64,000 bases of DNA, from positions 15,000-78,999 of the forward strand of contig CAJPGC010000039.1 of assembly GCA_905339405.1 (NCBI GenBank). The letters run 5' to 3'. Every line of letters starts with the position of its first letter. Within the stretch, counting starts at the first letter, position 1. This DNA comes from an uncultured bacterium (GTDB lineage: Bacteria > Desulfobacterota > GWC2-55-46). Made by a program: the position numbers and the translations under genes. The notes beneath the pieces were generated by a model. It saw only the letters and a program-made list of their open reading frames with translations, did not search any database and was not told the origin of the DNA. Below, in pieces: positions 2,722 to 37,593 of this stretch.

Positions 2722-3579
2722 TCAAGACAAAAAAGATGGCTGTATATGGTGTAGAAGAGCCTGCCTTGGTTTTGTCTTTGTCTCTGAGTCTTTCCTGATA
2801 TTTCTTTCCTTGAAGTAAACATCCTGAGGCGTCCGGTAGTCGAGGGCCTGATGGAGCCTCTCCGTGTTGTAGAAGTGAAAGTACCTGGCAAGGGACTCTC
2901 TGGCCTCTTTGACGGTCTCGTAGCTCTTAAGGTAGACTTCTTCGTACTTGACCGTCCTCCAGAGCCTCTCAACGAAGATGTTGTCCATTGCTCTGCCCCT
3001 GCCGTCCATGCTGATGGCGACCCCGAGTTTTTCAAGCCGCTCCGTGAACTCAACGCTCGTGAACTGACTTCCCTGGTCGGAGTTGAAGATGTCCGGGCTG
3101 GAAAGAGAAAGCGCCCTTTCCAGTGCCCTTATGCAGAACTCCGCATCCAGCGTCGTCGAGACCTCCCAGGAGAGCACATAGCGGCTGTGCCAGTCCATTA
3201 TGGCCACGAGGTAGATAAAGCCGCCCTTGAGCCGTATATACGTTATGTCCGTTGACCACACGTGGTCAGGGCGCTCTATGACGACGTCCTTCAGGAGATA
3301 CGGATACTTCTTATGGTCCTTGGCTGGCTTTGAGAGCCACGGCTTCGGATATACGGCCTCCAGCCCCAGGATCTTCATCAGACGCCTTACCCTCTTGCGG
3401 TTTACCATGTAGCCCCGGGTCCTGAGCCACTCCGTCATCTTCGGCACGCCGTAGAAGGGTGTCTTCGTATACTGCTCGTCCAGGAGCGTCATAAGGGCCT
3501 CGTTGAGCTCGTTCCGCTCCCTTGCCCTGTAATAGTAAGCCGCCTTAGAGAGGCCAAGAAGCCGGCACTGGCGCGACAC
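2722..3579 (-). CDS. IS3-family transposase OrfB (DDE integrase core, rve); probably expressed as an OrfAB fusion by a -1 frameshift, so the true frame extends upstream to the A9 site near 3650
   Basis: Motifs DITYIRLKGGFIYLVAIMDWHSRYVLSWEV ... NSDQGSQFTS ... ERLWRTVKYEEVY are the canonical rve/IS3 OrfB signature. Confidence 0.85.
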   Translation of the reverse strand: MSRQCRLLGLSKAAYYYRARERNELNEALMTLLDEQYTKTPFYGVPKMTEWLRTRGYMVNRKRVRRLMKILGLEAVYPKPWLSKPAKDHKKYPYLLKDVVIERPDHVWSTDITYIRLKGGFIYLVAIMDWHSRYVLSWEVSTTLDAEFCIRALERALSLSSPDIFNSDQGSQFTSVEFTERLEKLGVAISMDGRGRAMDNIFVERLWRTVKYEEVYLKSYETVKEARESLARYFHFYNTERLHQALDYRTPQDVYFKERNIRKDSETKTKPRQALLHHIQPSFLS

Positions 3580-3619
3580 AGGTATCTCAGAATTCCTTGG
3601 CTCTATTAAGGCTTTCTTC

Positions 3620-3904
3620 TCACTTGCCGAGGAGCTGAGATTTTTTTTTAAGCCAGTCCAGCTCCACCTTGAGCTGCCCTATTTGCCGGTAAAGCTCATC
3701 TGTCTCCGCCGCGTCTTCTTTTTGTTCCTTTCGCCGCCTGTCAGAGAAAAGGCCGGGGAGGTCCTCCAGAAGCCGCTTCTTCCACTGGCCGATCTGGTTT
3801 GGATGTACCCCGTACTCGCTCGCGATCTGGGCTATCGTTTTCTCGCCCTTGACCGCCTCAAGCGCCACCTTAGCCTTGAACGCCGCATCATGATTCTTCT
3901 TCAT
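3620..3904 (-). CDS. IS3-family transposase OrfA (HTH DNA-binding)
   Basis: 94 aa. IAQIASEYGVHPNQIGQWKKRL is an HTH and a leucine-zipper-like C-terminus follows. The final codons LKKKSQ are encoded by the A9 slippery sequence. Confidence 0.85.
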   Translation of the reverse strand: MKKNHDAAFKAKVALEAVKGEKTIAQIASEYGVHPNQIGQWKKRLLEDLPGLFSDRRRKEQKEDAAETDELYRQIGQLKVELDWLKKKSQLLGK

Positions 3905-3926
3905 TCTGCCTGCCTCCTGACCGTTA

Positions 3927-6605
3927 TTAGCAGGCTACCATACACCAAATACCTTTGTCTAAATTTTGGGGAGTATTATATTCAATTATTTTAATTTTCA
4001 TATGATTACCAAGTTCTAAAGAATAGATGTTCAATCCTAGGTGTGACAATTTTGCGATATAAATGAATCCGACAGCAGCTACGCCAAACTCCACAAAAAC
4101 GCCATAATTTTGAATAGAAATTATTTCACCTTCAATAATTGTTCCCGGAGGATAATCATTTATCAATTTTTCTTCTGCATTCAAATTGGTATGTGATTTT
4201 GCTCTTTCTAAATTTAAAAGTGCCGCAGAAATATCAAACAACTTCTCAAAATGTCCATCCTCCAAATATGCCTCCGGCCTAGAAATAAACTCTGCCCTAT
4301 AACTCTGCAAATATTTTGTTAAATCTTCGGCATTCAAGATACTTGTCTCTTGAGAAAAATGACCCTTGCCTGTTTGATTTGTCATTCTTTTCCAAATCCT
4401 ATCAGCCACTTCGCTGTTCTTATACCAAACATCCTCCGAACAAGCAGCCAAATAATCAATATTATTAACCAAGTCTAGATGAACGTGACCTGCCGGAGAA
4501 ATTGACACCAAATCACCCTCATTAATCTGATCAAGATCTTGGGTTTCAGAAACTACAGCCCCAAATTTCAGTAATTGAGCGAGCTCAATTTGTACTTTGT
4601 CAATGGAATGACCTAAAGACACCATATCTGAGCAAAGATCTATAATTTTATGATATCCTTTTATGCCGCTCGGGCCAAACTTTCTATATCTTTTTTCTAG
4701 CCACTGTAAAATCTCTAATCTAATAAAGGGATCAGGTATAATGTCTTCAGGATAAGAAAGAAATAAATTTTTTACTGACGATCCTGCATCCTGAAAATAT
4801 CTCCTATTTCCACGAAGAATGAGTCTCATTATTATGTGTTTTGGCAACGTATAATCACCTTGCGACTGCCTTATCTTTAGAATTTCATCTGGCGTAATAT
4901 GTCCACTTTTACAGAATTCAAGAAAAATTTCCAGCCCTCTCCTTATATCTCGGCCTGAAATTCCAGTTACAATTCTCCTAAAAAGGCTATCTGTAAAAAG
5001 TGATCTCAAGATGCAAGCCAAATAAATACCCTGCTCAGACCGTGGGTACTCAACTCTCATACCATTAGGGAGCACATAGCTTAATAGTTCCTCATCTTTT
5101 TGTTCTCCTCTCTTCTTATTCATCGTAGCCAAAGCAAAACCAATTCGTTTTGCTATTACCTGTGCTAACAATGGTGGGTCGATCCTGAATACTAAATCCT
5201 TTATTACTGTATCAAGTGGCGGTTCCTTACGGTGATGATCAAATGTGGTATCGCGTATTGGTAGAACCACTAAGCACTCAAACTCATTCTGCATCCACTT
5301 TGCGACTTCAAACATCAATAGCTGATCATCCCTTTTCCTTCTGTCACAATTATCCAGAACTACTACTGCCAATTTGCCTCTGTCTCGACACAGATATCTA
5401 ATATAAGCTTTCAAAGAATGTATTGGATTATTAAGGAGGCTTTGTAGTTCTGACGCAATGAGGTTTTTATATTCTACAGTACAAGGGTCAAATATTGCTG
5501 CCGGCCCTTTCTCAATTTTACGCAGTTCAACAGAATATAACTTTCTAAGTGTATTAAGTTCTTCGAAGTCAATATCAGAATACAATTCCTTAAATTTCGC
5601 CATTAGGCTTTCACAAAGCCATTTATAAATTTCCTCTTTGGACAAAGGGGCCTTATTTAAATCAACAGAAAGCCACACTGTTTTATCTTTTATTTCCCGG
5701 TGCAACGCAACTTCTGTTAAATAATCTATAAAGGTAGATTTTCCACTACCAACTCCACCCACTAATAGTAATATTTCATTTTTTAGACTCCAAAGGTTTT
5801 TAAATTTATCGGTTAGTTCTATTGGTCGTCCAGTATCCTGAATTTCTTTTATGCTAGACATTGTTAAAGGTATTGCCGATTTAATTATTCTTTCTATAGG
5901 GCTTACATGGCTTATTCTCTTTTTTGTAGTCACATAAGCATTTTTAACAACATTTTTTCTCTCATCTAATGTGCTCGGATTGAAAAGATAACGGTAATCT
6001 AGTGCTAATGTTGCACCAAAACTGTTTTGTTCTAATTCTTCATTTTGGACTGCTCGACCACCCAACATATTAATCGGTCTTTTAAATGTGGTGCCGCTTC
6101 TTAGAGAATTTAGTTTTGAATTTATAAAATCTGTCAATATTCTTTTTGACCCAAATTCAAGCAATCTAGAATACTTTTCACCTCCTACAAATATTTCATC
6201 AAAGAAAAGACTTACTTGCTCCTCTACGCTATCAGAAAAAGTTGCTACTATTTTCTTGCCATTAGTGGTTAAAATCTTTTGACAGGGGTTTATGTTATGC
6301 GGGAATTTTGCATTTAATTCTTGCGCATACAATCTAGCTTCTGTGCATGCACTTTCCAGTTCCACACTTGGATGTTTAACCTCGATTATCAAAACAGGCA
6401 ATCCTTGAATAAGTATTACATAATCCGGATAGTATAATTTTGAGCTTTTACCCTTTCCAATTACCAACTGTCTTAAATCAACTTTCGTTCTGAATTCAGA
6501 AGTACTGAACCCAAACCCCAGCGGATCAGGCGCAATAAGCATTTGGATAACAAACTTTTGTTCAACATCGCTTTCATTTAATAAATCTTCTATTTTACAA
6601 AACAT
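3927..6605 (-). CDS. Large island protein (892 aa): N-terminal HsdR-N-type PD-(D/E)xK nuclease-like domain, central P-loop NTPase (Walker A GGVGSGKST, Walker B VVVLDNCD, about 130 aa apart, STAND/KAP-like), helical middle region, C-terminal S1/OB-fold domain; the 3' end is overlapped by the IS3 terminus
   Basis: N-terminus SDVEQKFVIQMLI..LGF...YPDYVILIQGLPVLIIEVKHP fits the type I restriction HsdR N-terminal (HSDR_N) PD-(D/E)xK pattern. LLLVGGVGSGKSTFIDYL and LAVVVLDNCD are the P-loop motifs. C-terminus GTIIEGEIISIQNYGVFVEFGVAAVGFIYIAKLS...MKIKIIEY..LDKG fits the S1 pattern G.V.G.V..I..FGAFV..G..GL.HIS. The locus has a strong RBS (GGGAGGG) and is AT-rich throughout. Confidence 0.7.
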   Translation of the reverse strand: MFCKIEDLLNESDVEQKFVIQMLIAPDPLGFGFSTSEFRTKVDLRQLVIGKGKSSKLYYPDYVILIQGLPVLIIEVKHPSVELESACTEARLYAQELNAKFPHNINPCQKILTTNGKKIVATFSDSVEEQVSLFFDEIFVGGEKYSRLLEFGSKRILTDFINSKLNSLRSGTTFKRPINMLGGRAVQNEELEQNSFGATLALDYRYLFNPSTLDERKNVVKNAYVTTKKRISHVSPIERIIKSAIPLTMSSIKEIQDTGRPIELTDKFKNLWSLKNEILLLVGGVGSGKSTFIDYLTEVALHREIKDKTVWLSVDLNKAPLSKEEIYKWLCESLMAKFKELYSDIDFEELNTLRKLYSVELRKIEKGPAAIFDPCTVEYKNLIASELQSLLNNPIHSLKAYIRYLCRDRGKLAVVVLDNCDRRKRDDQLLMFEVAKWMQNEFECLVVLPIRDTTFDHHRKEPPLDTVIKDLVFRIDPPLLAQVIAKRIGFALATMNKKRGEQKDEELLSYVLPNGMRVEYPRSEQGIYLACILRSLFTDSLFRRIVTGISGRDIRRGLEIFLEFCKSGHITPDEILKIRQSQGDYTLPKHIIMRLILRGNRRYFQDAGSSVKNLFLSYPEDIIPDPFIRLEILQWLEKRYRKFGPSGIKGYHKIIDLCSDMVSLGHSIDKVQIELAQLLKFGAVVSETQDLDQINEGDLVSISPAGHVHLDLVNNIDYLAACSEDVWYKNSEVADRIWKRMTNQTGKGHFSQETSILNAEDLTKYLQSYRAEFISRPEAYLEDGHFEKLFDISAALLNLERAKSHTNLNAEEKLINDYPPGTIIEGEIISIQNYGVFVEFGVAAVGFIYIAKLSHLGLNIYSLELGNHMKIKIIEYNTPQNLDKGIWCMVAC

Positions 6606-14388: not shown

Positions 14389-15042
14389 TCAGTCGGGGGT
14401 AACTATGCCTTTCTTGATGGCCGTCTTGATGAGGCTCGCCATGTCGTTGACCTTGAGCTTCTTCATTATGTTGTTCCTGTGGCTTTTGACCGTGGCAAGC
14501 GAGATGAAGAGCTTCTCGGCTATCTCCTTGGAAGTGGAGCCGTCGGCGATATGCTTCAATATCTCTTTTTCGCGTCCTGAAAGAGTGTCGAACGGGTCGT
14601 TGGACTGCTCTTTTTTTATGACGTCGACGAAGTCGTTCAAGAGCTCCTCTGTGACGGCTGGGCTGGCGTACTTGCCGCCCGAGCTTACGCGCTCTACGGC
14701 CTTGAGCAGTTCTCCCGGGTCGGAGTCCTTGAGCACGTACCCGAGCGCGCCAGCCCTGAACGCCTCAATCGGGTGGTTCAGGTCCGCGTGCATGGAAAGT
14801 ATTATGACCCTTGTTCCGGGGACCTCTTCGGCTACCCGCCTCGTCACCGCGATGCCGTCGAGGTCAGGCATGGTGATGTCGAGGATGGCTATGTCGGGCT
14901 TCATCACCGAGATGGCCTTCAAGGCGGTGTTCCCGTTGTCGGCCTCGCCCACTACGTCGTAGTCAGAGCCCGACAGTACGGATTTTATCCCGTTACGGAA
15001 GACCGGATGGTCGTCCGCTATGAATATCCTGATTTTCTTCAT
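14389..15042 (-). CDS. NarL/FixJ-family response regulator (receiver plus LuxR-type HTH)
   Basis: MKKIRIFIADDHPVFRNG...DIAILDITMPDLDG..., with C-terminal LSGREKEILKHIADGSTSKEIAEKLFISLATVKSHRNNIMKKL. Start taken at the internal MKK; the ORF track extends to 15108. Confidence 0.8.
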   Translation of the reverse strand: MKKIRIFIADDHPVFRNGIKSVLSGSDYDVVGEADNGNTALKAISVMKPDIAILDITMPDLDGIAVTRRVAEEVPGTRVIILSMHADLNHPIEAFRAGALGYVLKDSDPGELLKAVERVSSGGKYASPAVTEELLNDFVDVIKKEQSNDPFDTLSGREKEILKHIADGSTSKEIAEKLFISLATVKSHRNNIMKKLKVNDMASLIKTAIKKGIVTPD

Positions 15043-29714: not shown

Positions 29715-32624
29715 CTATATCACCATCCTCGAAACCGCCTCGCTCAGCTCGTCGAGCGTAAAAGGTTTTTTGAGTGACGGGTTGCCGACCTCTTCAAGGA
29801 AGGCCAGTGTCTCGGAGCCCATGCTGTCGCCGGATATGAAGATTATCTTCCTGAGCGCCTCTGGGCATATCTTCTCGACCTCCCTGTAGAAGCCCTTGCC
29901 CCCGAGCCCTGGCATCTTTATGTCGCTTATGATGAGGTTGTAGCTCTCCTCCGATATCCTTTTCAAGGCTTCCTCCGCAGAGGAGCATTTGTCCACTTCG
30001 AAACCGAATCCGGAGAGCGAGTCGGCCAGCAGGTCCAGGACTATGGCCTCGTCGTCAAGGACGAGGGCCTTCATGTCTTCGACGCTCACCCTGTCCTGGC
30101 GGGCAGCGGCGCAGGGCACTCCGTAGCAGAACCCGTCCTCCTCCATGACCGGCAGTTCCACCACGAAGGTGGTCCCTATCCGCGGCCTGCTCGAGGCGTA
30201 TATGTTGCCGCCGTGCTCGTTTATTATGCCGTAGGAGATGCTGAGGCCCAGCCCCGTGCCCTTGCCGACGTCCTTCGTGGTGAAGAAAGGGTCGAAGAGC
30301 CTGTTGGCCACTTCATCCGAGAAGCCCTTGCCGGTGTCGGTTATGCTGACCATTATCTTCCCTGATGCGAGCCTGCTGGTTATCTCTATCCGGCCGCTGG
30401 GCCCCTTCTCCCTGATGGCGTCCCTGGCGTTGTTTATGAGGTTCAAAAAGACCTGCTGTATCTGGCTGGCGTCCACCATAGTGCCCGGGACGTCCGCTCC
30501 GAGGTCGAGCTTCATCTCAATGTTGTCCATGCTGAGCTGGTAGGCCCTGAACTCGATGCTTTCCCTTATTATCCTGTTGATGTCGTCGTACTTCTTCTCC
30601 GGCCTCTTCCACCTGGCGAACGTCAAAAGGTTCTCGATTATCTTCTTGCACCTGTGGGAGGCGTCGTTTATCTTGCGTAGCTTCGAGTCAGCGCTCTCGC
30701 CGAGCCTTTCCTCCATGAGGAGCTCGGAGAAGCACATTATTCCGGTAAGCGGGTTATTCAGCTCGTGCGCCACGCCCGAGACGAGCTCGCCGAGGGAGGA
30801 GAGCTTGTCCGACTGGATGAGCTTTTGCGTAAGGAGCCTTTTTTCCGTGACGTCCTGTATGTAGACGACCGCGCTCCTGGGCTCTGCCCCGTCTCCGGGC
30901 GCCATCGGGTAGGACTGCCATACCAGCACCTTGCCCTCCGGCGTCGTCATCTCGAATTCAGCCGGGGTGAGCGTGTCGATGGACCTCCTTATGGGGCAGC
31001 TGCCGTTCAGCGGCGGGACCGCTCCGAAGACCTCGTATATGCCCCTTCCGGTGACCGACTGCTCTGTGAGGCCCGCGGTCTCGAGGAAATGCCTGTTGGC
31101 CTCGAGTATTGAGTAGTCGTAACCGACCTGCAGCACATAATCGCGTATGCTGTCGTATATGAGCCTCAACTTGTTTTTGGCGGCCTTGAGCTCCTCTTCC
31201 TCCCGAGTGATGGTCCTGTTGGCCTTCTGGAGCTCCAGGTTCTTGCGGTCGAGGTCCTCGTTGAGGAGCTTCAGTTCCTCGTTTATGGCGTGCAGCTCCT
31301 CGGTCTGGCTCTGCGTCTCCTCGTAGGCTATCTCGAGCTCCTCGTTGGCTACCCTCAGGTTTTCATTGAGCCCCGCCAGGGCCTGCCCCTTCTGCTCGAT
31401 CTCCTTCAGGTACCTGCCTTTCTCGTTCTCCCTCAAGTTGACGTCGTCCATCATCTTGTTGAAGCTGGCTGCCAGGACCGTGAGCTCGTCCCCCCTGCCC
31501 CTGTAGCCCCCGAACTCGACGAGGTCTATGCGCGCGTCGAAATCCCCCGAGCCGAAAGCCGCGAGCTTCTCCTTGAGCTCCTTCAGGGGCCTGGTTATCC
31601 TCCGGGCGGATATGAGAGCGGCGAGTATCGAGAAGCTCAGCCCCAGGAGCGTTACGACCGCGACCGCCCTCTGGTTGCCTTTCTGGATGGTCCAGGTCTT
31701 CTCCTTGGAGAGCCCCACGTCCAGCGAGCCGATGACATTGCCCTTGTAGTCCTTTATGGGCTCGAACATCGATATGAGGGTCAGCCCCTTTATGCTCCAT
31801 TCGGCGAAAGCGCTCCTGCCGCCCTCGATGAGCGAGCTTACCTCACCGTCGACGGCGGTCCCCCTGAACGTGCCGGCCCCGGGCGCGGACAGGTTGGTAG
31901 CTATCCTCGTGCCGCCTGCGGTTATCGTAGTAAAAAGTCCGGGCAGCTTGTACGAGACCATGTCAGGGACGAAGCTGTCGTTGTTCAGCACGTCTGCAGT
32001 CACTATGGCCCCTATGGCCCTTTGCCTGTCGTCCAGCACCGGCGTGACGACGGTCAGGGCCAGGACGTCGGCTTTGGCCCCGGAGCCCATGCCGTCGGGC
32101 AGGGCCGCCATCTCGGAGATGCTGTTGCCTTCGAGCCTTATGACCTCTTCCGGGATGACTTCCGTTGAAACCTGAGGCCTCTTGGAATCCATGGCGTGCT
32201 GGACGAGTCCGCCCAGGAGGAGCTTGTCCCCGCTGAACTGGCTGTTTATCCTTGAGATGACCCGGCCGCTTCCGTCAGTGACGGCCCAGATGTCGACGTA
32301 GGGCCTCATCTGGCTCCACTGGGTCATGACTTTGCGCAGGTACTCGACGTCCCCCCTTGCGACGGCCTTTTTTATCTCCTCCATCGAAGAGGCCTGCAGC
32401 ATGCCGTAGCGCATCTGCTCGCCCCTTATGTAGTACTCGGTCCAGGCCGCCTTCATGCCGTTTGAAACTTCGGCGCGCGCGTGTTCCATCAACCGGGTGT
32501 CTATGACCTTGTATGAGACTATGGCCAGGAGCAGCATGGGCGCGAGCACGACCAATACGAAGATGGCCGTCAGCTTGAAACCGACCGGCATTGACGAGAA
32601 GAGCTTCAAAGGTGATTTTCCCAT
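29715..32624 (-). CDS. Hybrid sensor histidine kinase (TM, periplasmic Cache-like domain, HAMP, coiled coil, PAS, HisKA, HATPase_c, C-terminal receiver)
   Basis: HAMP (RPLKELKEKLAAFGSGDFDARI), H-box GVAHELNNPLTGI, G-boxes, and a C-terminal receiver (KALVLDDEAIVLD...NLIISDIKMPGLGG). Its start overlaps the cheR stop by 1 nt (TAATG). Confidence 0.8.
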   Translation of the reverse strand: MGKSPLKLFSSMPVGFKLTAIFVLVVLAPMLLLAIVSYKVIDTRLMEHARAEVSNGMKAAWTEYYIRGEQMRYGMLQASSMEEIKKAVARGDVEYLRKVMTQWSQMRPYVDIWAVTDGSGRVISRINSQFSGDKLLLGGLVQHAMDSKRPQVSTEVIPEEVIRLEGNSISEMAALPDGMGSGAKADVLALTVVTPVLDDRQRAIGAIVTADVLNNDSFVPDMVSYKLPGLFTTITAGGTRIATNLSAPGAGTFRGTAVDGEVSSLIEGGRSAFAEWSIKGLTLISMFEPIKDYKGNVIGSLDVGLSKEKTWTIQKGNQRAVAVVTLLGLSFSILAALISARRITRPLKELKEKLAAFGSGDFDARIDLVEFGGYRGRGDELTVLAASFNKMMDDVNLRENEKGRYLKEIEQKGQALAGLNENLRVANEELEIAYEETQSQTEELHAINEELKLLNEDLDRKNLELQKANRTITREEEELKAAKNKLRLIYDSIRDYVLQVGYDYSILEANRHFLETAGLTEQSVTGRGIYEVFGAVPPLNGSCPIRRSIDTLTPAEFEMTTPEGKVLVWQSYPMAPGDGAEPRSAVVYIQDVTEKRLLTQKLIQSDKLSSLGELVSGVAHELNNPLTGIMCFSELLMEERLGESADSKLRKINDASHRCKKIIENLLTFARWKRPEKKYDDINRIIRESIEFRAYQLSMDNIEMKLDLGADVPGTMVDASQIQQVFLNLINNARDAIREKGPSGRIEITSRLASGKIMVSITDTGKGFSDEVANRLFDPFFTTKDVGKGTGLGLSISYGIINEHGGNIYASSRPRIGTTFVVELPVMEEDGFCYGVPCAAARQDRVSVEDMKALVLDDEAIVLDLLADSLSGFGFEVDKCSSAEEALKRISEESYNLIISDIKMPGLGGKGFYREVEKICPEALRKIIFISGDSMGSETLAFLEEVGNPSLKKPFTLDELSEAVSRMVI

Positions 32625-33448
32625 TATCCTTTTTTCCTGAAGAGATTTAACCCCTTGCCAACCGGGGCGTACCCGGGCATGAACTGCTGAGGGAGCACCT
32701 CGGCCCTGCCGAGCGCCAGCAGTCCGCCGGGCCTCAATGCGTAGTCGAGCTTCTGAAACACTTTCTCCTGGAGCGGCTTGCCGAAATATATGAACAGGTT
32801 CCTGCAGACCACCAGCTGCATGCCGGAAAGCGGCGTGGACTGCACGATGTCCAGCGTACCGAACTTCACCAGGTTCCTTATGGCGTACTTTACCTTGTGC
32901 TGGCCGTCCTTCTGGATGAAATAACGCTCCATCATCTCCGGCGGGACGTTCAGCATCGAATCGATCCTGTATGTAGCGCGCCTGGCCTGCTCAAGCGCAT
33001 CCGGGTCTATGTCAGTTGCAAAGACTTTCGCCTTGACGAGCGCGTCCATGCCCAGGCATTCGGAAAGCAGCATCGCGACAGAATAAGGCTCCTCCCCGCA
33101 GGCGCACCCGCAGCACCACGCGCGTACGTGGGTGCCGCAAAACTCGTTTCTCAAGACTTCGGCGACGGCCGCGAAGACCTCGGGCTCCCTGAAGAACTCG
33201 CTGACCTTTATCGTTATGCTGGAGAACAGGCGGGAGTACTCCTGCGGGTCGCTGTCGAGAAGGCGCTCGTATTCGCTTATGGAGGTGCCGCTGGCCTGGA
33301 GCCTCTTGGAGATGCGCCTCAAGAGCGTCATCTTCTTGTAGCCGCGAAAATCCCAGCCGCGTTCGGCGTATATCTTCTCGAGCAGGGCCGGGAGACCCTG
33401 CTCGATACCGGCGTTCGCCTCGTTGCGGAAAATGGAAAGAACATTCAT
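32624..33448 (-). CDS. cheR: CheR-type protein-glutamate O-methyltransferase
   Basis: SEFFREPEVFAAV..., the SAM-binding region VRAWCCGCACGEEPYSVAMLL, and ATDIDPDAL...LVVCRNLFIYF are CheR signatures. Start chosen at the internal MNVLSIF; the ORF track extends to 33490. Confidence 0.8.
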   Translation of the reverse strand: MNVLSIFRNEANAGIEQGLPALLEKIYAERGWDFRGYKKMTLLRRISKRLQASGTSISEYERLLDSDPQEYSRLFSSITIKVSEFFREPEVFAAVAEVLRNEFCGTHVRAWCCGCACGEEPYSVAMLLSECLGMDALVKAKVFATDIDPDALEQARRATYRIDSMLNVPPEMMERYFIQKDGQHKVKYAIRNLVKFGTLDIVQSTPLSGMQLVVCRNLFIYFGKPLQEKVFQKLDYALRPGGLLALGRAEVLPQQFMPGYAPVGKGLNLFRKKG

Positions 33449-33600
33449 GCTGCACCAGGGATGATGAAGAGGCCCATGGATTTGTAACAATTCTAATTTA
33501 GGTAACGCTCTCTTATAGCACGCTACAATCCTTTTATCAACAGGTTATTGAAAAATAATGCCGGTTTTATGCTTATTCTCAAAAAAACGGCACTTCTGCT

Positions 33601-36600
33601 ATGCTGAAGCATATGGAAATCCCGGGCCTCATCAAAAGCGTGAAGGTCAACGTCAAAGCAAGGGACCACGAGTCGGTCTTGAAAGAGATGTTCACGGGTC
33701 TACTGGCGGAGGGCGGGCCAAAGACCTTCCGCGACCTCGAGGTTCACGAGAGCTCGGAAGGCGCCCTGGCCGGGACAGGCGGGGCCATATTCCATTGTTT
33801 CGCGGAAGAGGCGGAAAACACGGTCATAGCCCTGGGGACGACGAAAAAGGCCGTCTCCCGCAAAGGGGGCAAAGGGGCTGCCAGGGTATTTTTCGTCATA
33901 GTCTCGCCCATGAGGGAGAGCGGCACCCATATGCAGCTCCTCTCAAGGCTCGAGGCCCTTCTCCTTGACAGGGCCTTCACGCACGCGGTCCTGGCGGCCT
34001 CGACTCCGGAAGAGGCGAGAAGGGCCGTGAAATGGGCGGAGGGGTCGTCAAAAGCGCTGTACTTGCCGCTGGAAAAAGACGAAGTGCTCTCCGAGCTCGG
34101 CACCTCTGACAAAGGCCTTTCTCATGAAGAAGCCGCCAGCAGGCTCGGACAGACAGGGCCGAACACGATAAAAGGGGTAAGGGGCCGCAGGCTCCATAAA
34201 GACCTCGCCAAAAACCTCTTCTTCAACCTTTTCGCGGCCCTACTCTGGGCGGGCGGGCTCATGTCGTTCATCGCGGGCATGCCCGAGCTCGCCTCGGCCA
34301 TCTTCCTGGTCATAGTCATAAACGCCGTCTTCAGCTTCATACAGGAGTACAAGGCGGAAAGGGCAGTCGAGGCGCTCACAAAGCTTCTGCCCCTTCGCGT
34401 AAAGGCCATACGGGGCGGAAAAGAAGTAGAGGTAGAAGCGGCGGGGCTCGTGCCCGGCGACCTCGTGAAGCTGTCCGAAGGCGGCCAGATACCGGCTGAC
34501 GGCAGGCTCATCTCATCTGACGACCTGAAGGTCGACAATTCTGCCCTTACGGGAGAATCAAGGCCGGTCTGGAAGACCGCCGGGCCCATTGAGGCCGGTC
34601 GCGAGTTCAACTGGATAGAGTTGCCCAACATGGCTTTCGCCGGGACCGGGGTCGCCTCCGGCGCCGGTACGCTGGTCGTCACCGCCACCGGCATGGATAC
34701 CGAAATAGGCTCTCTCGCCTCGCTTACACAGGCGATAAAAAACGAGGAAAGCCCTCTTCAAAAAGAGATATCCCGCCTCACTAAGACAGTAACGCTCATC
34801 GCCGTCGTCCTCGGCGCGCTCTTTTTCCTCCTCGGCTGGCGCTTCGGCGGGCTCACCCTTGCTGGAAGCTTCATCTTCGCCATCGGCATAATCGTCGCGA
34901 ACGTGCCCGAGGGGCTGCTGCCTACAGTCTCGCTGTCGCTGGCGATGGGCGTGCAGAGGATGGCCTCCCGCAGGGCCATCGTAAAGAAACTCTCCTCCGT
35001 CGAAACGCTCGGCTCCGCCTCCGTCATCTGCACGGACAAGACGGGAACGCTCACCGAGAACAGGATGTCGGTAACCGAGGTCTACACCGGCGGGAGGACC
35101 TTCTCAGTAAAAGGCGACGGATACGCCCCTGAAGGCTCGTTCTTTTTCGAAGGCAGGGACCTGGGCGGAGATGATTTTACCGCCACTGGAATAAGAGAGA
35201 TGCTGGAGATAACGGCCCTGTGCAATAACGCCCGCCTCAACGCCCCCGGCTCCACTTCAGGCGAATGGACGGTATCCGGCGACCCTACCGAAGGCGCGCT
35301 CCTCTCGGCGGCCGCAAGGGCCGGGGTTGACCTCGATAGGCTCATTGAAGCCAACCCCAGGGCCGGCCACATCCCTTTCGAGAGGATAAGAAAGAGGATG
35401 ACGACCATCCACGGGAACGGAATGAGGCTGGCGGGCGGCTTAAAAAGAGTCGCCCTTACGAAAGGCGCGCCAAAAGAGGTCCTCTCACGCTGCGATTTCA
35501 TCCGCGTCGACGGCAAGACCGTCCCCCTTACCGAAGATGCGCGCTCATCGATACTCTCGAAGAACGACTCAATGGCGGCCAGCGGGCTCCGCGTCCTGGC
35601 GGCGGCTTTCGGCCCGGCGGATGACGAAGGCCCTTATGAAGCCGAACGGGTCGAAAAAGGGCTGACCTTCTCCGGGCTCGCGGCCATGCGGGACCCGTTG
35701 AGGCCCGAGGTGAAGCGGGCCGTCGAGGAATGCGCGAGCGCGGGCATAAAAATAATAATGATGACCGGAGACTACGGCATAACGGCCAGGACGATAGCCA
35801 GCGAGGCCGGCATAGCCGCCGGAAGGACAGTGACCGGCGAAGAGCTCTCCAGGATGAGCGGCAGGGAGCTCAAGAAAGCTCTGAAGGGGGAGGTCCTCTT
35901 CGCGAGGGTAGCTCCTCAGGACAAACTCCGTGTCGTGGCCGCCCTGCAGGAGAACGGCGAGACCGTCGCCGTCACCGGAGACGGGGTAAACGACGCCCCT
36001 GCACTCAAGAAGGCCGACATAGGCATAGCGATGGGCCGGCGCGGCAGTGACGTCGCGAAGGGGTCGGCGGACATGATACTCACTGACGACAACTTCGCCT
36101 CCATAGTGGAGGCGGTGCGCGAAGGGCGGGCCGTATACTCGAACATCAGAAAGTTCGTCACCTACATCTTCGCCAGCAACGTCCCGGAGATGGTCCCGTT
36201 CATAGCCTTCGTACTCCTCAAGATACCGCTGCCGCTCACGATAATGCAGATACTTGCCGTAGACCTCGGGACAGACGTCCTCCCTGCCCTCGGGCTCGGT
36301 GCCGAACCTCCGGAGCCCGGCATAATGAAAGAGCCGCCAAGGCCCAGGGGCAAAAGACTCCTCGACTTCAGGACCCTGTCCAGGGCCTATCTTTTCCTCG
36401 GCCTCATCGAGGCGGCCCTGGCGATGTCGGCCTTCTTCTTCCTGTACTGGATGAGAGGGTGGACGCCCGGAGAGCCGATGGCGGATACGGGGGCCGTGTA
36501 CATGGCCGCCACGACGATGACCTTCGCTGCGATAGTCGCGGCCCAGATAGGCAACGTCATGGCGTGCAGGACCTCGAAAGAGCCGGTCTTCAAGGCCGGA

Positions 36601-36795
36601 CTCCTCAAAAACCGTCTCATCCTGGCCGGGATAGCCCTTGAGGCGGCGCTCGTCATCGTCCTTACGTACACTCCTCTCAGATCGGTCTTCAACCTCCACC
36701 CGTTGAGGCCCGTTGAATGGGCCTTTCTCCTCTCTTTCCCATTCATAGTTCTTCTGGCGGAAGAGGCAAGGAAGGCGTTTGGCAGGCGGGCCTAA
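33601..36795 (+). CDS. P2-type cation-transporting P-type ATPase with an N-terminal PTS EIIA(Ntr)/PtsN-like domain fused
   Basis: The N-terminal roughly 150 aa align with PtsN (GTGGAIFH versus GNGIAIPH; VFFVIVSPMRESGTHMQLLSRLEALLLD versus LLFALLVPADQTKTHLHTLSLVAKRLAD). The ATPase core carries PEGLLPTV, ICTDKTGTLT, KGAPKEVL and TGDGVNDAPAL, with about 10 TM segments. Confidence 0.85.
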   Translation: MLKHMEIPGLIKSVKVNVKARDHESVLKEMFTGLLAEGGPKTFRDLEVHESSEGALAGTGGAIFHCFAEEAENTVIALGTTKKAVSRKGGKGAARVFFVIVSPMRESGTHMQLLSRLEALLLDRAFTHAVLAASTPEEARRAVKWAEGSSKALYLPLEKDEVLSELGTSDKGLSHEEAASRLGQTGPNTIKGVRGRRLHKDLAKNLFFNLFAALLWAGGLMSFIAGMPELASAIFLVIVINAVFSFIQEYKAERAVEALTKLLPLRVKAIRGGKEVEVEAAGLVPGDLVKLSEGGQIPADGRLISSDDLKVDNSALTGESRPVWKTAGPIEAGREFNWIELPNMAFAGTGVASGAGTLVVTATGMDTEIGSLASLTQAIKNEESPLQKEISRLTKTVTLIAVVLGALFFLLGWRFGGLTLAGSFIFAIGIIVANVPEGLLPTVSLSLAMGVQRMASRRAIVKKLSSVETLGSASVICTDKTGTLTENRMSVTEVYTGGRTFSVKGDGYAPEGSFFFEGRDLGGDDFTATGIREMLEITALCNNARLNAPGSTSGEWTVSGDPTEGALLSAAARAGVDLDRLIEANPRAGHIPFERIRKRMTTIHGNGMRLAGGLKRVALTKGAPKEVLSRCDFIRVDGKTVPLTEDARSSILSKNDSMAASGLRVLAAAFGPADDEGPYEAERVEKGLTFSGLAAMRDPLRPEVKRAVEECASAGIKIIMMTGDYGITARTIASEAGIAAGRTVTGEELSRMSGRELKKALKGEVLFARVAPQDKLRVVAALQENGETVAVTGDGVNDAPALKKADIGIAMGRRGSDVAKGSADMILTDDNFASIVEAVREGRAVYSNIRKFVTYIFASNVPEMVPFIAFVLLKIPLPLTIMQILAVDLGTDVLPALGLGAEPPEPGIMKEPPRPRGKRLLDFRTLSRAYLFLGLIEAALAMSAFFFLYWMRGWTPGEPMADTGAVYMAATTMTFAAIVAAQIGNVMACRTSKEPVFKAGLLKNRLILAGIALEAALVIVLTYTPLRSVFNLHPLRPVEWAFLLSFPFIVLLAEEARKAFGRRA

Positions 36796-36844: not shown

Positions 36845-37351
36845 ATGGAGCGGGATATGCAGACACAGACACAGAAAAAACCACCGGTCACGATAGTGCT
36901 TTTCAGCGGCGAGCTGGACAAGGCGATGGCCGCCTTTGTAATAGCCACGGCCGCCGCCTCGATGGGCATGACCGTCAACATCTTTTTCACCTTCTGGGGG
37001 CTCAACGTCATAAAAAAGAAGGGCGGCCTCATAAAAGGGCAGAACTGGATGCAGAAGATGCTCAACGTGGTCAACTACGGACACGCCAGGAAACTCGCCC
37101 TCTCCAAGCTCAACATGATGGGCATGGGCCCGGTGATGCTCAAGGAGATGATGTCGCAAAAGCGCGTCCCCTCGCTCGACGAGTTCATAAAGACCGCGAA
37201 GACCCTGGGCGTCAGGTTCTATCCGTGCGAGATGAGCATGACCGTGATGGGCCTTAAAAAAGAGGACTTCATAGACGAATGCGACGAGATCATCGGCGCT
37301 GTAAGCTATCTGTCCGTTGCGAAAGATTCGAACATAAACCTGTTCATATGA
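36845..37351 (+). CDS. DsrE/DsrF-like (YrkE-type) sulfur-relay family protein
   Basis: VTIVLFSGELDKAMAAFVIATAAASMGMTVNIFFTFWGL is the DsrE-like fold signature, and the gene is immediately followed by a TusA gene. This is the typical DsrE2–TusA pairing. Confidence 0.55.
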   Translation: MERDMQTQTQKKPPVTIVLFSGELDKAMAAFVIATAAASMGMTVNIFFTFWGLNVIKKKGGLIKGQNWMQKMLNVVNYGHARKLALSKLNMMGMGPVMLKEMMSQKRVPSLDEFIKTAKTLGVRFYPCEMSMTVMGLKKEDFIDECDEIIGAVSYLSVAKDSNINLFI

Positions 37352-37359
37352 GGTAAGAG

Positions 37360-37593
37360 ATGGACTTCACTGCAGACAAGACGCTGGACGCAAGGGGCCT
37401 TTCGTGCCCCATGCCCTCGGTCAAGACGGCCCTCGCCCTAGAGGCGATGGAAGAGGGGAAGGTGCTTCTGGTGCTGACGGACGACCCTGTCTCGAGAAAG
37501 GACCTCCCGGTGTGGGCCCAGTCCACGGGCAACACCCTCCTGGGGGTCGAGGAAGAAGGGGCCACCATAAAGATATTCCTCAAAAAGGGATAA
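37360..37593 (+). CDS. tusA: TusA-family sulfurtransferase
   Basis: 77 aa with the CPxP active-site motif (LDARGLSCPMP) and the TusA two-layer fold pattern. Confidence 0.8.
   Translation: MDFTADKTLDARGLSCPMPSVKTALALEAMEEGKVLLVLTDDPVSRKDLPVWAQSTGNTLLGVEEEGATIKIFLKKG

Follow-up and report, generated by a model that had tools for sequence, protein, structure and literature searches.

The 64,000-nucleotide stretch of DNA analysed here (the window; positions 15,000 to 78,999 of contig CAJPGC010000039.1, assembly GCA_905339405.1, from an uncultured bacterium of the Desulfobacterota lineage GWC2-55-46) encodes at 33601-36795, on the forward strand, a protein in which an enzyme IIA (EIIA) domain of the phosphoenolpyruvate (PEP)-dependent phosphotransferase system (PTS) is joined to the amino terminus of a P2-type cation ATPase. 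At least four phyla share the conserved fusion, and two histidine residues of its EIIA domain, His65 and His110, are under selection. We consider it probable, with considerable reserve, that the EIIA domain would serve as a cis-acting PTS phospho-switch on a single-chain, beta-less pump for monovalent cations, with an ion pocket of the Na,K/H,K-ATPase (P2C) type.

The gene is one uninterrupted open reading frame (ORF) of 1064 residues, without internal stop. Its amino-terminal domain reaches 46.9 bits with the Pfam model PTS_EIIA_2 (PF00359; gathering cutoff 27 bits) in the context of the whole protein, and 51.9 bits when the N-terminal 170 residues are searched alone, which bears out the EIIA domain proposed there by an earlier, sequence-only reading of this DNA, for which a hidden Markov model (HMM) search was named as a check. 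The domain lies approximately 14 residues ahead of the first helix of the N-terminal segment of the actuator (A) domain. Translation probably begins at the ATG at 33613, as 113 of 120 homologues start with the methionine corresponding to residue 5 of the ORF; a Shine-Dalgarno sequence is not recognisable at either ATG (window 33601-33615).

The earlier reading had allowed for an artefact, in which adjacent free EIIA and pump genes are mis-joined, or the pump is translated from an internal start with its own ribosome-binding site. The continuous reading frame speaks against it, as does the recovery of the same protein in four independent assemblies: the window matches contig JAUQXI010000024.1 of the metagenome-assembled genome (MAG) GCA_030834745.1, and the protein is 100% identical to the one encoded there (P0001) and to those on three independent Logan assemblies. 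Between residues 112 and 220 there is no ATG and no in-frame internal start with a credible ribosome-binding site. The only alternative start in this interval, a GTG at Val143, could be taken to favour the artefact, as it follows a Shine-Dalgarno-like AAGAGG, but the spacing of 17 nt is too long. Nor do two close homologues that are annotated without a Pfam EIIA match (P0070 and P0072) qualify as EIIA-less relatives, since their genes were called too short, from a point within the last helices of EIIA. The linker, moreover, is short and conserved (P156 in 116 and L157 in 115 of the 120 homologues). Relatives that truly lack the fusion are found only from about 49% identity downwards (Thermodesulfovibrionales, Firmicutes), and no separate EIIA gene was found within 10 kb of those at approximately 49%. 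Together with the architecture of the homologues, these findings effectively refute the artefact, to which we assign a negligible probability, and the gene stands as a conserved single gene.

The homologue set comes from a search across 5.8 billion proteins, of which the best 120 clusters were considered. All of these clusters are fused. They range from 100% down to 51% identity, measure approximately 1065-1110 residues, combine PF00359 with the pump domains, and stem from MAGs labelled Deltaproteobacteria, Nitrospinae, Nitrospirota, Brocadiaceae (Brocadiales) and Ca. Loosdrechtia. A word-indexed homology search with the amino-terminal domain alone gave only fragments, and a scan of metagenome loci with the family alignment, for which the patterns were drawn from the conserved core, returned almost exclusively unfused relatives. 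A metagenomic ORF of 1147 residues (L061:2109-5549) is 43% identical to the pump and carries a weaker EIIA-like segment at its N-terminus (E 1e-13 with the family HMM); as a distant fused member, it shows that the fused family reaches beyond the 51%-identity set. We found no description of an EIIA-P-type ATPase fusion in the full-text literature searched, though the PTS reviews of Barabote & Saier (2005) or Deutscher (2014) may mention one. Automatic Pfam annotation already shows the architecture, and both parts appear together in one JGI name (P0111); otherwise the public annotations of the family contradict each other (Na/K, H/K, Mg, Ca, "HAD-IC"). The fusion, which the sequence-only reading had called unusual, is thus undescribed in the literature searched, but widespread in metagenomes.

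As to the class of the domain, the label "PtsN-like" given to it earlier stands at the level of the family, whereas the match of the single sequence is weak and remains below the cutoff of the PtsN equivalog (TIGR01419/NF008145; 13.7 bits versus 138.7). A family profile built from 28 amino-terminal domains (A1) finds in the PDB the PtsN structures 2A0J (2.3e-18) and 1A6J (6e-18), as well as 4GQX and 3URR (E-values up to 3.7e-17), followed by Yersinia EIIA at 8e-13, and the mannitol domain EIIA-Mtl at just 1.4e-6. An AlphaFold2 (AF2) model of the domain (predicted local distance difference test, pLDDT, 88.5; predicted template modelling score, pTM, 0.85) supports the EIIA-2 alpha/beta fold. In Foldseek searches with this model, PtsN structures occupy ranks 1 and 2 and form the top group (2A0J, 1A6J, 3URR and 4GQX, TM-scores 0.65-0.76), then come 3OXP and 1A3A, and the next group after PtsN consists of the EIIA-fold cytoplasmic domains of SLC4/Band 3/AE2/BTR1. 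Among solved structures the domain is therefore closer to PtsN than to sugar-specific EIIA. Searched singly against NCBIfam, all 28 family members match the fructose-IIA model (fruA-IIA, best 4e-27) and 20 match PtsN (best E 2e-22), and for this reason we class the domain as an EIIA-2 domain of the PtsN/Fru class that is related to PtsN, but is not a PtsN orthologue.

His65 aligns with the active-site histidine of Neisseria and E. coli PtsN, and His110 with the second conserved histidine. The loop around His65 divides the family into two sub-groups, one with the canonical G-x-G-x-A-F-P-H-A-R, the other, to which the window belongs, with G-T-G-S/G-A-I-F-H-C. In the window itself (33790-33798, residues 64-66, F-H-C) a phenylalanine precedes the presumed phospho-histidine and a cysteine follows it; Cys66 is present in 42 of 120 sequences.

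The EIIA domain diverges much faster than the pump: identity to the query has a median of 39% and falls to 23-28% for the domain, compared with a median of 62% for the pump core. Against this background, His65 is retained in 115 and His110 in 116 of 118 homologues (more than 96%), and His65 is invariant both in A1 and in the curated family alignment of 52 sequences (A2). Two further residues behave likewise, P103 (118 of 118 sequences with a residue at this position) and E50 (114), both of them invariant in A2. Because the histidines are kept while the rest of the domain drifts, the phosphotransfer site is under selection. This is the pattern that would be expected of a functional phospho-acceptor site, and it is our main argument against a purely structural domain.

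The sequence-only reading took the remainder of the protein for a complete P-type ATPase, and indeed all domains and motifs are there. TGES (317), PEGL (436), DKTGT (479), KGAP (621), MTGD (721) and TGDGVNDAPAL (792) are invariant in A2, the score with the HAD-IC P-type ATPase model TIGR01494 is 309 bits, well above the cutoff of 62.3, and the full-length AF2 model contains ten long membrane helices, in keeping with a ten-helix architecture with Cation_ATPase_N and Cation_ATPase_C. The fifth transmembrane helix (TM5) spans residues 832-872 of the model and lies just upstream of the Pfam envelope of Cation_ATPase_C. The ATP-driven catalytic machinery is complete. In the PDB, the best sequence match is the alpha subunit of Na,K-ATPase (NKA; approximately 525 bits), followed by the H,K-ATPases (HKA), Listeria LMCA1 (481), SPCA1 and SERCA (421). 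The full-length model (pLDDT 77.5) points in the same direction: its closest structures are NKA E1 states, with NKA E1.3Na+ (8JBK) first at 34% identity.

The likeness to NKA extends to the ion sites. In the alignment with human NKA alpha3, the TM4 motif VANVPEGLL is identical, with E437 at the position of E327; TM5 reads Y-I-F-A-S859-N860-V-P-E863 (NKA Y-T-L-T-S-N-I-P-E), TM6 V-D888-L-G-T-D892 (NKA I-D-L-G-T-D, SERCA N-L-V-T-D) and TM8 Q982-I-G-N985 (NKA Q923-W-A-D926). All residues of sites I and II (pig alpha1 E327, S775, N776, E779, D804, D808, Q923) have their counterparts, in this order E437, S859, N860, E863, D888, D892 and Q982. The carboxylates among them are all present and invariant, as is Q982, and S859 and N860 are conserved in at least 90% of the 52 sequences. 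Two Ca2+ ligands of SERCA, N796 in TM6 and E908 in TM8, whose positions are those of D888 and Q982 by the accepted correspondence between SERCA and NKA, are not kept, and the residues found instead are those of NKA. The lysine typical of H,K-ATPases is absent, with a serine in its place, as in NKA. No candidate gene for a beta subunit was found in the neighbourhoods examined, and no prokaryotic homologue of the beta subunit is known. On the evidence of these residues the protein is most likely a two-site pump for monovalent cations, moving K+ against Na+ or H+, with a Ca2+ pump as the minority alternative.

A link to monovalent cations also emerges from the relatives of the EIIA domain. The A1 profile has 16,614 matches at E <= 1e-3 among 1.84 billion representatives. 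After fragments of the pump family itself, the best of these are antiporters of the CPA superfamily (Na_H_Exchanger), soluble tandem EIIA-EIIA proteins and free EIIA proteins. The CPA antiporters (P0138, P0143, P0145, P0154, P0175 and P0251; 770-906 residues) bear two copies of PTS_EIIA_2 at their C-terminus. Outside the pump family they come closest to the domain, with E-values of 1e-37 to 1e-27 against the family profile; the full-text literature searched does not describe such an EIIA-CPA fusion either. At one locus, a CPA antiporter gene (L054:301-2991) is followed by a free EIIA gene of 155 residues (L054:3047-3514). The EIIA class is thus repeatedly attached to monovalent-cation transporters. 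The free relatives measure approximately 150-158 residues and score 77-104 bits with PtsN (cutoff 138.7) and 82-116 bits with fruA-IIA (cutoff 103.5), and one of them, a closest free relative (P0171), is encoded immediately after hpf, the canonical position of ptsN.

Two lineages place the fused pump next to homologues of K+ uptake systems. In a Nitrospinae MAG (GCA_016194325.1), a gene on the strand of the fused pump (L052:8090-9922) stops 78 nt before it and encodes a 610-residue permease of the AA_permease_2/APC type. KimA, a K+ transporter of B. subtilis, is the only relative of this permease with a solved structure (E 2e-7), and the permease and pump genes may form an operon that links two K+-related transporters. 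In Ca. Brocadia sinica/AMX2 (L135:8001-12120, L136:8001-12120), an ORF of 678 residues joins the first 360 or so residues of a KimA-like permease to the EIIA domain, Cation_ATPase_N and the beginning of the A domain, while the remaining pump is found in two more ORFs of 225-228 and 496-508 residues. The arrangement recurs unchanged in more than 80 contigs and is therefore genuinely genomic, and the locus is probably a rearranged and decayed copy of the EIIA-pump. Intact homologues of the permease, such as P0303, match KimA at 4e-62. As the Nitrospinae and Ca. Brocadia cases show, homologues of K+ uptake systems accompany the EIIA-pump in two phyla. As a general architecture, the triple fusion P0128 (APC permease, EIIA and pump) was rejected, since it is confined to Ca. 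Brocadia sinica/AMX2 and has its pump split into three ORFs.

Together, our data suggest the following model. A regulatory PTS, running from EI or EI-Ntr to HPr or NPr, would supply phosphorylated HPr/NPr, which would reversibly phosphorylate His65. In one of its states, probably that without the phosphoryl group if PtsN is a guide, the domain would bind the cytoplasmic headpiece and restrain or release the movement of the A domain, so that EIIA would act like the terminal autoinhibitory or regulatory (R) domain of other P-type ATPases. As the domain is attached just before the A domain, a contact that depends on phosphorylation could restrain A-domain rotation, and the effect could be activation or inhibition. 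The pump, which most likely takes up K+ in exchange for Na+ or H+ at two sites, would then respond in cis to nitrogen status and to the ratio of PEP to pyruvate. ATP would remain the energy source, because the ATP-binding and phosphorylation motifs are invariant. That His65~P should donate its phosphoryl group to Asp479, with PEP as an alternative energy source, is very unlikely, given the full conservation of the ATP-binding N domain. The model draws on three kinds of precedent. TrkA and KdpD are direct targets of PtsN. A further one is the CPA1 K+/H+ antiporter YcgO, which is inhibited when unphosphorylated PtsN binds its cytoplasmic region (PMC11808508), and the nitrogen PTS controls KdpFABC, a P-type ATPase complex, via KdpD (PMC9239096). 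LacS carries a fused EIIA-Glc-like domain, and its transport is modulated when HPr phosphorylates that domain (PMC10710835). P-type ATPases, for their part, possess terminal R domains that are thought to dock on the catalytic headpiece and to gate activity (PMC10654040).

Several of our findings weigh against this model. On the side of the pump, the score with the NCBIfam model for Na,K/H,K alpha subunits (IIC, TIGR01106) is 595.5 bits and fails to reach the cutoff of 946.1. Site III of NKA is altered, with an invariant asparagine (N985) for D926 and a near-invariant alanine (A858) for T774, which leaves the ions and the stoichiometry uncertain. The highest NCBIfam match is nominally a Ca2+ pump, the PMR1-type TIGR01522, at 606 bits. 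This match, the end-to-end alignment with Listeria LMCA1 and SPCA1 (475-481 bits) and the name Ca2+-ATPase in some source annotations could mean that the protein exports Ca2+ (or Ca2+ and Mn2+) as a bacterial P2A pump of the PMR1/LMCA1 type, in which case EIIA would tie Ca2+ extrusion to the state of the PTS. We regard such a substrate as unlikely. No cutoff of a Ca2+-ATPase equivalog is reached (PMR1-type 798; SERCA-type TIGR01116, 526 versus 703), NKA and HKA alpha subunits score higher, VANVPEGLL, SNVPE and DLGTD match NKA residue for residue with D888 and Q982 replacing the SERCA ligands, and the association with KimA-like K+ transporter homologues in two lineages speaks for K+. The question of Ca2+ concerns the substrate only and fits either model of regulation, and its probability overlaps with theirs and is not to be added to them.

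On the side of the domain, the single sequence of the window matches Neisseria PtsN only at E 0.022, and in the clade of the window A-I-F-H-C replaces the canonical A-x-P-H-[GA]-R loop, with phenylalanine for proline. One of the two histidines is lost in five members (His65 in P0110, P0113 and P0117; His110 in P0091 and P0115). In the full-length AF2 model (pTM 0.59) the linker has a pLDDT below 50 at 150-153, and EIIA is not confidently docked. The contig annotation and a Pfam scan revealed no EI/PtsP, HPr/NPr, HprK, rpoN, hpf or free PtsN in the 64-kb window, no PTS genes were found around fused homologues in three other lineages, and a scan of six-frame ORFs from 134 loci (1.67 Mb) with the EIIA HMM and an HPr probe found no HPr-like ORF within 10 kb of any fused pump. 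The only HPr match of that scan (L017), which we rejected as a partner, is an unrelated multidomain PTS protein.

The lack of PTS genes near any fused pump examined, the F-H-C loop and the losses of a histidine (5 of about 118 members) would all suit an EIIA fold that works independently of phosphorylation, be it as a structural element, a scaffold or a regulator that binds a ligand or protein, like the SLC4/Band 3 domains that come right after PtsN in the Foldseek ranking. The histidines would then serve binding or folding. This explanation, which we hold to be unlikely, has to reckon with the retention of both histidines in a domain that is otherwise down to 23-28% identity, with the conservation of the G-x-G-x-A-x-x-H loop and of E50 as in PtsN, and with the fact that the domain scores on PTS EIIA HMMs and does not merely share the fold. 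The cis-acting phospho-switch thus remains the model that we favour. The features on which it is based, together with neighbouring genes, are collected in Table 1.

Table 1. Features of the EIIA-pump gene and its surroundings (positions in the window; residue numbers refer to the 1064-residue ORF)
Feature	Position	Strand	Basis or remark
Whole gene, EIIA-P2-type ATPase fusion (stop codon included)	33601..36795	+	ORF, Pfam, homologue set
PTS_EIIA_2 domain, aa 13-143, PtsN/Fru class	33637..34029	+	Pfam; profile versus PDB; AF2/Foldseek
His65 codon (GTGGAIFH), predicted phospho-acceptor	33793..33795	+	aligned with PtsN active-site His; conservation
His110 codon (SGTHMQLLS), second conserved EIIA-2 histidine	33928..33930	+	aligned with PtsN G-E-H-L / T-H-L
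Short linker, aa 144-157, conserved [YF]154-x-P156-L157	34030..34071	+	conservation
Cation_ATPase_N, aa 158-222, N-terminal part of A domain into TM1	34072..34266	+	Pfam
E1-E2_ATPase, aa 262-456: A domain with TGES (317-320), TM3, TM4 with VANVPEGLL (E437)	34384..34968	+	Pfam, motifs
DKTGT, aa 479-483, catalytic Asp479	35035..35049	+	motif; invariant
Nucleotide-binding (N) domain, aa 539-634, with KGAP (K621, G622 invariant)	35215..35502	+	Pfam Cation_ATPase
P-domain HAD part, aa 689-806, with MTGD (721) and TGDGVNDAPAL (792-802)	35665..36018	+	Pfam Hydrolase
TM5 ion-site motif S859-N860-V-P-E863 (NKA S775, N776, E779)	36175..36189	+	aligned with human NKA alpha3; conservation
Cation_ATPase_C, aa 876-1060, Pfam envelope TM6-TM10	36226..36780	+	Pfam
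TM6 ion-site motif V-D888-L-G-T-D892 (NKA D804, D808; SERCA N796 at first position)	36259..36276	+	alignment, conservation
TM8 Q982-I-G-N985 (NKA Q923 kept; D926 replaced by invariant Asn)	36544..36555	+	alignment, conservation
Hybrid histidine kinase, sCache_3_3-HAMP-PAS-HisKA-HATPase-REC	29715-32624	-	upstream, divergent
CheR	32624-33490	-	upstream, divergent from pump
DsrE_2	36845-37351	+	downstream, same strand
TusA	37360-37593	+	downstream, same strand
IS-type integrase (rve, HTH_21)	2722-3579	-	adjoins HSDR_N gene
HSDR_N-domain protein, 892 aa	3927-6605	-	in low-GC stretch

Downstream of the pump, TusA is followed on the same strand by a PNP_UDP_1 phosphorylase gene, and nothing that resembles a terminator separates DsrE_2 from the pump. 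The flanks, CheR and the histidine kinase on one side and DsrE_2 and TusA on the other, are kept at three loci whose pumps are 84-61% identical (L001, L002 and L050; at L050, DsrE_2 and TusA are approximately 80% conserved, compared with 61% for the pump), and they are absent in Brocadiales and Nitrospinae. They are thus a matter of lineage synteny and not a conserved module, and we rejected both pairs as partners of the system. The window also holds many PAS/HAMP histidine kinases and response regulators, FtsH, tRNA synthetases and other genes. Apart from this neighbourhood, a stretch around 2722-6605, containing the integrase and the HSDR_N gene, has a low GC content (36% in 4001-6000 versus about 58% elsewhere) and is probably a horizontally acquired island.

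The fusion is of interest to two fields. In proteobacteria, the control of K+ by PtsN runs via transient contacts that are hard to pin down, and the fusion offers a 1:1 system in a single polypeptide in which the structural basis of such control could be studied. The fusions to the pump and to the CPA antiporters provide independent evolutionary evidence for a direct action of PtsN-class domains on cation transporters, and, if the model is correct, would amount to a natural Rosetta-stone proof of it. For the P-type ATPase field, the family would bring a new type of R domain, proposed to depend on histidine phosphorylation, and it adds a large bacterial group of pumps with an NKA-type pocket. 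A defined function would also correct many contradictory database records. Whether the family is the first case of a P-type ATPase controlled in cis through PEP-dependent phosphorylation of a histidine, and whether it defines, with the CPA antiporters, a class of "EIIA-gated" monovalent-cation transporters, is a tentative proposal that we put at somewhat less than even chances. In any case, the concept extends known biology, namely the regulation of cation transport by PtsN and terminal R domains, without overturning it, with a mechanism that we infer.

Among known systems, one close parallel is free PtsN with its targets TrkA, KdpD/KdpFABC and YcgO, which shares the domain class, the conserved phosphorylatable histidine and targets in monovalent-cation transport. 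However, PtsN acts in trans, whereas the domain described here is covalently attached, in cis and at 1:1, and its target is a P2-type pump and not Trk, Kdp or CPA. The ptsN gene also typically encodes a free protein of about 150-165 residues in an rpoN-hpf-ptsN(-rapZ-ptsO) cluster, and the fused domain is not so placed. The CPA antiporters with two EIIA copies likewise transport monovalent cations, but they are secondary transporters, and their EIIA is duplicated and C-terminal; the parallel suggests that antiporters and pump share one regulatory logic. LacS of streptococci and lactobacilli is, like the pump, a non-PTS transporter with a fused EIIA-type regulatory domain. It differs in that this domain has the EIIA-Glc fold, is C-terminal and belongs to a sugar symporter of the GPH family, while here an EIIA-2 domain precedes a primary ion pump. 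The SLC4/Band 3 ion transporters, too, begin with a cytoplasmic domain of the EIIA-2 fold. These proteins are eukaryotic, have an unrelated membrane domain and a larger cytoplasmic chain (about 230-300 residues versus about 145 here), and their domains may have lost a phosphotransfer role; in the pump, both histidines are kept.

Among P-type ATPases, extra cytoplasmic domains at a terminus are familiar as the calmodulin-binding R domains of P2B, the C-terminal R domains of P3A and the metal-binding domains of P1B pumps, and plant P2B pumps even have theirs at the N-terminus next to the A domain, as here. No R domain that has been described belongs to the PTS or works by histidine phosphorylation, and the word "phosphotransferase" is absent from the 2023 field-wide review of P-type ATPases (PMC10654040). 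The alpha subunits of NKA and HKA (P2C) are the best matches in sequence and structure, with sites I and II of the same kind, yet the fusion protein falls below the TIGR01106 cutoff, has an altered site III and an extra EIIA domain, and lacks the lysine of the H,K-ATPases. NKA-like genes of methanogens are uncharacterised, and their role has been posed as an open question (Palmgren 2023, PMC10654040). The fused family, a bacterial relative of NKA with a modified site III, bears on the same question of what the prokaryotic relatives of the sodium pump do.

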